Source: a virus (taxonomy: Duplodnaviria > Heunggongvirae > Uroviricota > Caudoviricetes). Taken from it: a stretch of 40,499 nucleotides of DNA. The notes beneath the pieces are model-generated. The model had not been told where the DNA came from. It ran no database searches and saw nothing but the letters and a program-made list of their open reading frames with translations. The position numbers were made by a program, and so were the translations under genes. The stretch lies in IMG/VR virus record IMGVR_UViG_2667527965_000002; one strand, given 5' to 3'. Positions 23,650-23,904 of this stretch are shown piece after piece; position 1 is the first letter of the stretch, and the number at the start of each line of letters is the position of its first letter.

Positions 23650-23904
23650 ATGCCTGAATTATTGCGTGAACTTAAGTGGTCCCCAGATGGTTGTATTGTC
23701 GAATCCATTCCCGCAGGGGTGTATTCGGACGGTGAGCTACCTGTCCGCGCTGAGGAAATTGCTGCCGAACTTGGCATTATCAAATTTGGTAGTGGCGGTG
23801 TTCATGTTCCTGCAGAGCCAGAGCCAGAGCCAGAGCCAGAGCCAGAGCCAGAGCCAGAGCCAGAGCCAGAGCCACCGAAAACAAAACGTGGGAAGACCAA
23901 ATGA
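23650..23904 (+). CDS. Small protein with C-terminal (Glu-Pro)10 repeat
   Basis: 84 aa ORF; GAGG SD; the repeat is encoded by a hexanucleotide array. Confidence 0.5.
   Translation: MPELLRELKWSPDGCIVESIPAGVYSDGELPVRAEEIAAELGIIKFGSGGVHVPAEPEPEPEPEPEPEPEPEPEPPKTKRGKTK
23815..23874. repeat. Tandem hexanucleotide repeat (GAGCCA)x10
   Basis: Perfect 60-bp array directly visible in the sequence. Confidence 0.95.

Follow-up and report, generated by a model that had tools for sequence, protein, structure and literature searches.

What does a perfect ten-copy hexanucleotide repeat do inside a small gene of a phage head module: does it switch the gene, does it vary the length of a protein linker, or is it an artefact? 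The question is raised by IMG/VR virus record IMGVR_UViG_2667527965_000002, a Caudoviricetes sequence of 40,499 nucleotides (nt) that was analysed as a whole and is called the window here; it is a prophage whose left end carries an integrase, and it is related in mosaic fashion to prophages of E. coli and Citrobacter. An earlier note on this DNA had pointed to a (GAGCCA)x10 tract encoding ten Glu-Pro (EP) dipeptides in a small open reading frame (ORF), and had proposed that unit changes stay in frame and vary the length of a linker between lineages. Our analysis bears out both claims, and we consider it likely that the tract is a slippage-driven, length-tolerant Glu-Pro spacer in a conserved small head-module protein, and not an ON/OFF switch. 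The elements concerned are as follows.

23650-23904, + strand: small head-module ORF of 84 amino acids (aa) plus stop, ATG start, member of phrog_21989 / phrog_1020 (ORF list, PHROG hidden Markov models (HMMs), homologues)
23650-23790, + strand: conserved N-terminal globular domain (N-domain), residues 1-47, motif LKWSPDGC...AG...LPxRAxEIAxxLGI, predicted strand-strand-strand-helix-strand (AlphaFold2, alignment)
23791-23814, + strand: Gly-rich hinge GSGGVHVPA, residues 48-55, ahead of the repeat (sequence, alignment, model confidence)
23815-23874, + strand: perfect (GAGCCA)x10 microsatellite, (Glu-Pro)10, residues 56-75 of the small ORF (direct sequence reading, Tandem Repeats Finder)
23875-23901, + strand: basic C-terminal tail PKTKRGKTK, residues 76-84 (sequence, homologues)

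Copy-number variation of the repeat

Tandem Repeats Finder agrees with direct reading of the sequence and reports a repeat at 23813-23874 with a period of 6, 10.3 copies, 100% matches and zero indels, the surplus 0.3 copy being the CA just 5′ of the first unit. This is the only perfect hexamer run of at least 3 copies in the window, and within ~1.55 Mb of incidentally fetched loci the sole perfect hexanucleotide run of at least 4 copies lies in L117, a locus related to this one. A perfect period-6 tract of 60 nt is beyond what chance explains.

The copy number was compared across 44 close relatives (those with an MPELL-type N-domain) found in complete E. coli genomes, in metagenomes and in IMG/VR, with all counts deriving from assemblies. 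Far from being identical in all relatives, the EP tract comprises 2, 3, 4, 5, 6, 7, 8, 9, 10, 11, 12, 14 or 19 units, always in frame, and the in-frame variation between lineages that the earlier note had proposed is thereby confirmed. The units are nearly all pure GAGCCA, with occasional GAACCA, GATCCA or GAGTCA, and the complete E. coli genomes carry 6 and 7 of them. The number differs even between loci that are otherwise the same: the window, E. coli SZQ1 (L001) and L263 have 10, 7 and 8 units, respectively, in flanks (1360 nt upstream, 724 nt downstream) that show 100% identity, while L268 and L292 share identical flanks and have 4 and 10. As copy number differs between identical flanks of ~2.1 kb, the repeat must change much faster than point substitutions accumulate. 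Across pairs with at least 99.9% upstream identity the copy number differs in 62%, rising to ~80-100% of more distant pairs. With perfect or near-perfect short units arranged head to tail (10 units at 100% matches in the window) and different copy numbers in near-identical haplotypes, the locus is a variable-number tandem repeat (VNTR).

Slipped-strand mispairing is the standard mechanism for fast changes in repeat copy number, and we infer that 6-nt units are gained and lost here in this way, possibly also by unequal recombination. An interrupted allele, GAGTCA-GATCCA-GAGCCA (ESDPEP), has exactly 3 units in all nine loci that carry it, a constancy that is as expected if instability depends on the purity of the repeat. 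A change by 6-nt units adds or removes whole codons, so that the length can vary but the gene cannot be turned ON or OFF in this way; in all 43 complete relatives the frame stays open as far as the same basic tail. We therefore rejected a classical ON/OFF phase-variation locus, as the 6-nt unit lies inside the ORF and not one of the 44 loci holds a frameshifted allele.

Separately, several database entries (P0016, P0042) are marked partial, or are contigs that end inside the EP tract (L285, ending at 3189), which suggests that short-read assemblies break at the repeat or get its size wrong.

The linker within a conserved head-module protein

The product of the small ORF is MPELLRELKWSPDGCIVESIPAGVYSDGELPVRAEEIAAELGIIKFGSGGVHVPA-(EP)10-PKTKRGKTK, which begins with MPELL and has VPA immediately before the (EP)10 tract. 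AlphaFold2, given a 25-sequence alignment, models the N-domain with confidence (predicted local distance difference test, pLDDT, about 89 for residues 1-47 and about 88-91 for residues 1-40), and assigns residues 49-84 low confidence (pLDDT <50 from residue 49 onward) and no secondary structure. Columns W10, P12, D13, G14, P31, A34, I37 and A38 of the N-domain are invariant, and a crude count of variant codons in this domain over 18 alleles gave 19 synonymous against 15 nonsynonymous changes, consistent with purifying selection on a real protein.

The protein matches the HMM of phrog_21989 at 2.1e-38 (residues 1-70 on profile positions 1-72 of 80) and that of the broader phrog_1020 at 2.1e-12, both of which PHROG annotates as 'unknown function'; searches of Pfam (E<=0.01) and NCBIfam assigned no family and returned no named homologue. 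Among the homologues are Sb7 (Salmonella phage ST64B), SfII_07 (Shigella phage SfII) and proteins of SfI, SfIV, Yersinia YeP1-3 and Klebsiella prophage-derived phages. An IMG/VR scan with an alignment of the N-domain, a whole-protein query being saturated by the PEPEPEPE pattern, found 513 relatives. Pattern scans of metagenome and genome contigs with an 18-letter flank pattern (16 specified bases) gave mostly chance matches in unrelated organisms, and among the flank-pattern matches listed only L065 and L117 are real relatives.

These results bear on whether the ORF is a gene at all, or the repeat an assembly artefact. Besides the missing Pfam or NCBIfam assignment, what speaks for such a reading is that the exact 84-aa sequence is absent from a 15-billion-protein collection. 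However, the IMG/VR relatives conserve both motif and position, the PHROG matches are strong, the gene has a strong Shine-Dalgarno (SD) site and the frame is preserved in all alleles. Moreover, a tract of 10 units occurs independently in L292 (9 GAGCCA and 1 GAACCA, encoding a protein one residue off that of the window), and 6-7 units are found in complete genomes. We regard either as very improbable.

The layout of the family is constant, with an N-domain of ~47 aa, a variable acidic and often Pro-rich low-complexity linker and a short basic C-terminus. The latter takes forms such as KKxKK, TKRGKTK, NKRGEGK and KEKKATTSKEG in most of the family and is absent in a few MILKQ-type variants (P0133, P0135, P0142). 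The gene order capsid, small gene, gp6-type connector holds in every locus examined, and the small gene is found both with siphovirus-type tails (L005, L008, the Klebsiella phage) and with sheath-bearing myovirus tails (L009-L011, SfII, ST64B, YeP1 and E. coli PapRG-04-4). Since it keeps the same slot between capsid and connector genes with both tail types, the small gene is part of the head module and not of the tail.

Other lineages carry other sequences at the linker position. L005 has (CCTGAG)5, that is, EP with a different Pro codon, and L008 has (GCCAGA)4. The 9-nt unit GAGCAGCCA, encoding EQP, is present in 8 copies in L256 and L294 and in 13 copies in L297; a second 9-nt EQP unit with other codons, GAACAACCG, is present in 13 copies in L296 but only once in L298 and L299, whose N-domain is the same. 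YeP1 has three copies of GAGCAGGCA (EQA), and L301 a diverged 36-nt duplication. Subfamilies without DNA repeats have a fixed length of 66 aa (SfII/ST64B type) or 71 aa (Klebsiella type). Finally, nearly all cluster representatives of an 89-aa Citrobacter subfamily have PEPEPEP (HEPEPEP in P0031), encoded by the mixed codons GAG CCA GAA CCT GAG CCG, so that a short EP segment appears to be kept at the protein level without being slippage-prone, which suggests protein-level selection for a short EP tract in that subfamily. As judged from these alignments, different units have expanded independently at the same linker position, the length of the tether is loosely constrained (roughly 0-40 residues across the family), and the tether becomes a hypervariable microsatellite where its codons turn homogeneous. 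The family comparison also suggests that an acidic, Pro-containing tether is itself a selected feature.

We propose that the repeat product would act as an acidic Glu-Pro spacer of variable length, predicted to be disordered or extended and polyproline-II-like, that connects the folded 47-aa N-domain with the short basic tail. In such a model the N-domain would dock on a component of the head, the EP segment would serve as an acidic tether, either flexible or extended, and the basic tail could make electrostatic contact with DNA or an acidic partner. The length of this spacer would not be tightly constrained, and so ~0 to 40 linker residues would be tolerated across the family while alleles drift quickly. 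The protein as a whole probably has an accessory role in head assembly, DNA packaging or head completion, or else is an accessory associated with the capsid.

It could be argued that the length polymorphism is adaptive, the repeat being a phage contingency locus that tunes packaging efficiency, particle stability or adhesion to surfaces. Such a role would agree with a copy-number turnover that is very fast relative to the flanks, with the convergent origin of repeats of different units at the linker position in at least four lineages, and with the broad range of alleles (2-19). However, any disordered linker with codon-homogeneous repeats would act alike under neutrality, entire subfamilies (the 66-aa and 71-aa types) lack the repeat, copy number is not associated with the connector allele described below, and a 6-nt unit cannot switch expression; we therefore think adaptive length polymorphism unlikely. 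We would give as little credence to the bolder version in which the linker is a 'tuning knob' of the phage, with rapid length variation (~0-40 residues, through EP hexamers and EQP/QPE nonamers) under selection for the diversity that it would bring to a virion or packaging phenotype among the phages of a population, and the repeat possibly doubling as a recombination joint. If length variation did prove adaptive, the idea of contingency loci would extend to phage head genes, although the present data do not require adaptation.

Even without adaptation, the locus offers a clear-cut natural case of a phage structural module in which a coding microsatellite mutates far more quickly than the DNA around it, and it can be used as a high-resolution marker for closely related E. 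coli and Citrobacter prophages. It also draws attention to a widespread, uncharacterised head-module protein with a folded domain, a disposable acidic tether and a basic tail, for which the natural allelic series (2-19 units, together with the repeat-free subfamilies) amounts to a ready-made experiment on tolerance of linker length.

Head-gene neighbourhood and connector alleles

Judged by Pfam, the block of genes around the small ORF is a standard HK97-type late operon, and matches to both neighbours establish the place between the major capsid and head-tail connector genes that had been claimed for the small ORF from reading the sequence.

20520-21749: portal (Pfam)
21736-22389: S78 prohead protease (Pfam)
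22403-23611, + strand: HK97-type major capsid protein gene, upstream neighbour (Pfam PF05065 Phage_capsid, 4.7e-79)
23617-23639, + strand: terminator-like hairpin TGGGGC-TTCG-GCCCCG (23617-23632) followed by ATTTTTC, in the gap between capsid gene and small ORF (hairpin inspection)
23640-23645, + strand: SD site GAGGTG, 4 nt 5′ of the small-ORF ATG (sequence reading)
23901-23904, + strand: ATGA overlap of small-ORF stop and connector start (sequence reading, ORF list)
23901-24224, + strand: gp6-like head-tail connector (adaptor Ad1) gene, downstream neighbour (Pfam PF05135 Phage_connect_1, 5e-14; phrog_40)
24234-24572: head closure protein (Pfam)
24569-25018: gp10-like protein (Pfam)
25015-25362: gp17-like tail completion protein (Pfam)
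25421-25864: tail tube (Pfam)

Purine-rich sites resembling the GAGGTG of the window also precede the homologous genes, and the -1 overlap of small gene and connector is kept in all 43 close relatives in which both genes are complete; this ATGA overlap probably couples the translation of the two. A G+C hairpin comparable to that of the window lies 3′ of the capsid gene in L008, L012, L013 and L014, while in L005 and L009, which belong to distant clades, a strong terminator follows the small gene and not the capsid gene. We also considered the small ORF as a frameshift extension of the capsid protein and judged this unlikely, given that it has its own conserved ATG and a strong SD site after the hairpin.

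These arrangements matter for the idea that the small protein is a component of the virion, a decoration- or fibre-like accessory with its N-domain on the capsid or the portal vertex, whose anionic EP rod would point, together with the basic tip, either away from the particle or into it toward the DNA. The terminator 3′ of the small gene in L005 and L009 groups it with the highly expressed capsid gene, the N-domain is co-inherited with the capsid gene among close relatives while the connector is swapped, and SPP1 gp12 and the EP rods of TonB and the procyclins are precedents. Yet the terminator-like hairpin of the window parts the small gene from the capsid gene, the small gene is probably coupled in translation to the low-copy connector, no similarity to a known decoration protein emerged from Pfam, PDB or BFVD searches, and literature searches yielded no proteomic support (ST64B, SfIV). 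HK97-type cross-linked capsids are also not known to require decoration. On balance a place in the virion is possible but doubtful.

Swapping of the connector is apparent from nucleotide identity, which among close relatives is 97-100% through the capsid gene and N-domain, falls to 55-72% from just after the repeat across the connector gene of ~330 nt, and returns to 97-100% from the head-closure gene. The gp6-like connector gene exists in at least three divergent alleles (55-72% nt identity; window 23875-24224 against L002-L004, L273 and L278), the divergent segment being bounded by the EP repeat on its left and the connector gene end on its right. As identity drops right after the repeat, the repeat sits at a mosaic junction. 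The 9-aa tail encoded beyond it mostly travels with the connector: PKTKRGKTK is found with allele 0 at 15 of 17 loci, AVTKRGKTK with allele 1 at 15 of 15.

In light of this junction the repeat might matter mainly as DNA, providing a shared micro-homology at which the capsid-shell module becomes recombined with one or another connector allele. Besides the sharp steps in identity, L260, L282, L284 and L286 combine left flank, tail and connector in recombinant ways, which speaks for such a role. However, phages at large show mosaicism at gene boundaries, for which no special site is required, and some breakpoints (L282, L286) fall outside the repeat. We consider this explanation improbable, slightly more so than adaptive length variation.

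Returning to the length-tolerant Glu-Pro spacer, five points weigh against it. A literature search on members of the family, including virion proteomics of ST64B and SfIV, found no expression, virion or mutant data. Fold and profile searches of Pfam, NCBIfam, PDB and BFVD gave no similarity to any solved structure and no functional lead. The data fit neutral drift and selected length diversity alike, and the two cannot be separated. The placement of the hairpin differs between clades, before the small gene in the window and after it in L005 and L009, such that the expression signals conflict. Lastly, the 19-unit alleles, which come from metagenomic contigs (L257/L258), could be mis-sized.

A few further features of the window were recorded. 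Other terminator-like G+C hairpins with T-runs lie at 25379-25400, before the tail tube gene, and at 26795-26814, before the tape-measure gene. The tail tube ORF at 25421-25864 is short (147 aa); at this place E. coli ET245 (L004), like Klebsiella phage ST101-KPC2phi6.3, has a form of 234 aa, which in L004 is annotated as immunoglobulin-domain-containing, and RefSeq calls the short form of L001-L003 a pseudogene 'missing C-terminus'. Between the large terminase and portal genes, at 20335-20520, is a very hydrophobic 61-aa ORF that has no Pfam family, and L008 and L009-L011 have a 60-61-aa ORF at the equivalent position. A gene for a YebO-like small membrane protein (26601-26789; Pfam PF13974, 1.2e-09) lies between the tail assembly chaperone G/T and tape-measure genes in a moron-like placement with its own terminator-like hairpin 3′; it is present in L001 and L002 and replaced in L003. 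Finally, ORF 8757-9665 contains direct repeats of ~23 bp at 9084-9182 (GTCAAAATGAC core; 46-bp period x2.2) and a 12-bp x3 repeat at 9222-9257, which look like the iterons of a replication origin embedded in the gene of a replication protein.

Comparison with known systems

Among the closest systems are the members of phrog_21989 and phrog_1020 themselves, such as Sb7 of ST64B and SfII_07. The window protein is a direct member of this family and shares its gene position; the ST64B and SfII members differ in that they have no EP tract and a fixed length of 66 aa.

Extended rods of EP repeats occur in TonB and in the trypanosome procyclins, and the (Glu-Pro)n-(Lys-Pro)n spacer of TonB and EP procyclin resemble the window protein in using runs of Glu-Pro dipeptides as extended acidic spacers. 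The likeness is compositional and not one of homology, as the window protein has neither the transmembrane nor the C-terminal domain of TonB. TonB was accordingly rejected as an assignment, for the EP region alone matches it, at 21.5 bits against an NCBIfam cut-off of 265, a score driven by composition; a match to the Trypan_PARP HMM is likewise composition-driven and below threshold. A literature search for Glu-Pro repeats in phage capsids returned nothing relevant.

The motif LKWSPDG, part of which lies in KWSPDGCI at residues 9-16 (23674-23697), also recurs in the blades of PD40/WD40-like propellers. When 1.84 billion representatives were searched with a profile of the N-domain, more than 8000 matches were to multi-blade propeller proteins, through the WSPDG hairpin only, and the true relatives were single-stretch proteins of about 60-107 aa. 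A PD40/WD40-like beta-propeller was rejected, as only the LKWSPDG hairpin of ~15 residues aligns, the motif occurs once and no Pfam repeat matches. A sequence search of PDB, together with NCBIfam, gave composition or motif matches only (the TonB EP region, propellers).

Decoration proteins of the gpD, Soc, Dec and gp12 types showed no similarity in Pfam, PHROG-annotated, PDB or BFVD searches. Among them, SPP1 gp12 invites comparison: it is a very small auxiliary capsid protein of the head module with a proline-rich central tandem peptide repeat, collagen-like and of polyproline-II type. The collagen repeat of gp12 is of the Gly-X-Y type and trimerizes, the gene for gp12 precedes that of the capsid protein, and binding to the capsid has been demonstrated. 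Both are thus small head-module proteins with a Pro-rich central repeat, but no sequence or fold similarity between them was found.

The small protein could also be a functional analogue of lambda gpFI, a non-virion packaging or head-assembly chaperone linking the prohead with the terminase-DNA complex, in which case one end would bind the capsid, the flexible acidic linker would span the gap and the basic tail would contact DNA or terminase. Both proteins (for gpFI, DNA packaging chaperone FI, PDB 2LSM) are small and belong to the head module, their genes share the slot between major capsid and head-completion genes, and gpFI likewise has an acidic, flexible middle segment of low complexity. 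The small gene, moreover, accompanies the head module whatever the tail type, and gpFI-like proteins are reported from myophages and siphophages alike (via PMC4493119); a review describes gpFI as a bridge between the capsid and the terminase-DNA complex (PMC13595911). In contrast, the arrangement of domains is opposite in the window protein, and no sequence or fold similarity is detectable. Homology to gpFI was in fact rejected, with an hhalign probability of 0.5%, no Pfam match at E<=0.01 and no fold similarity to the gpFI C-terminal domain (2LSM), and functional analogy is a tentative suggestion that we hold to be about as likely as a place in the virion.

With respect to the repeat itself, in-frame coding VNTRs and variable disordered linkers are already well known, also on prophages. 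STTR6, a locus of multiple-locus VNTR analysis, has a 6-bp unit. It sits on prophage Gifsy-1 (PMC3901673). Both STTR6 and the window locus are prophage-borne tandem repeats of a short unit whose copy number varies between closely related strains. Unlike STTR6, the repeat of the window lies in the gene of a small head-module protein, where it codes for a defined Glu-Pro linker that joins a folded domain to a basic tail, and homologous genes of other lineages have evolved different units at the same place.
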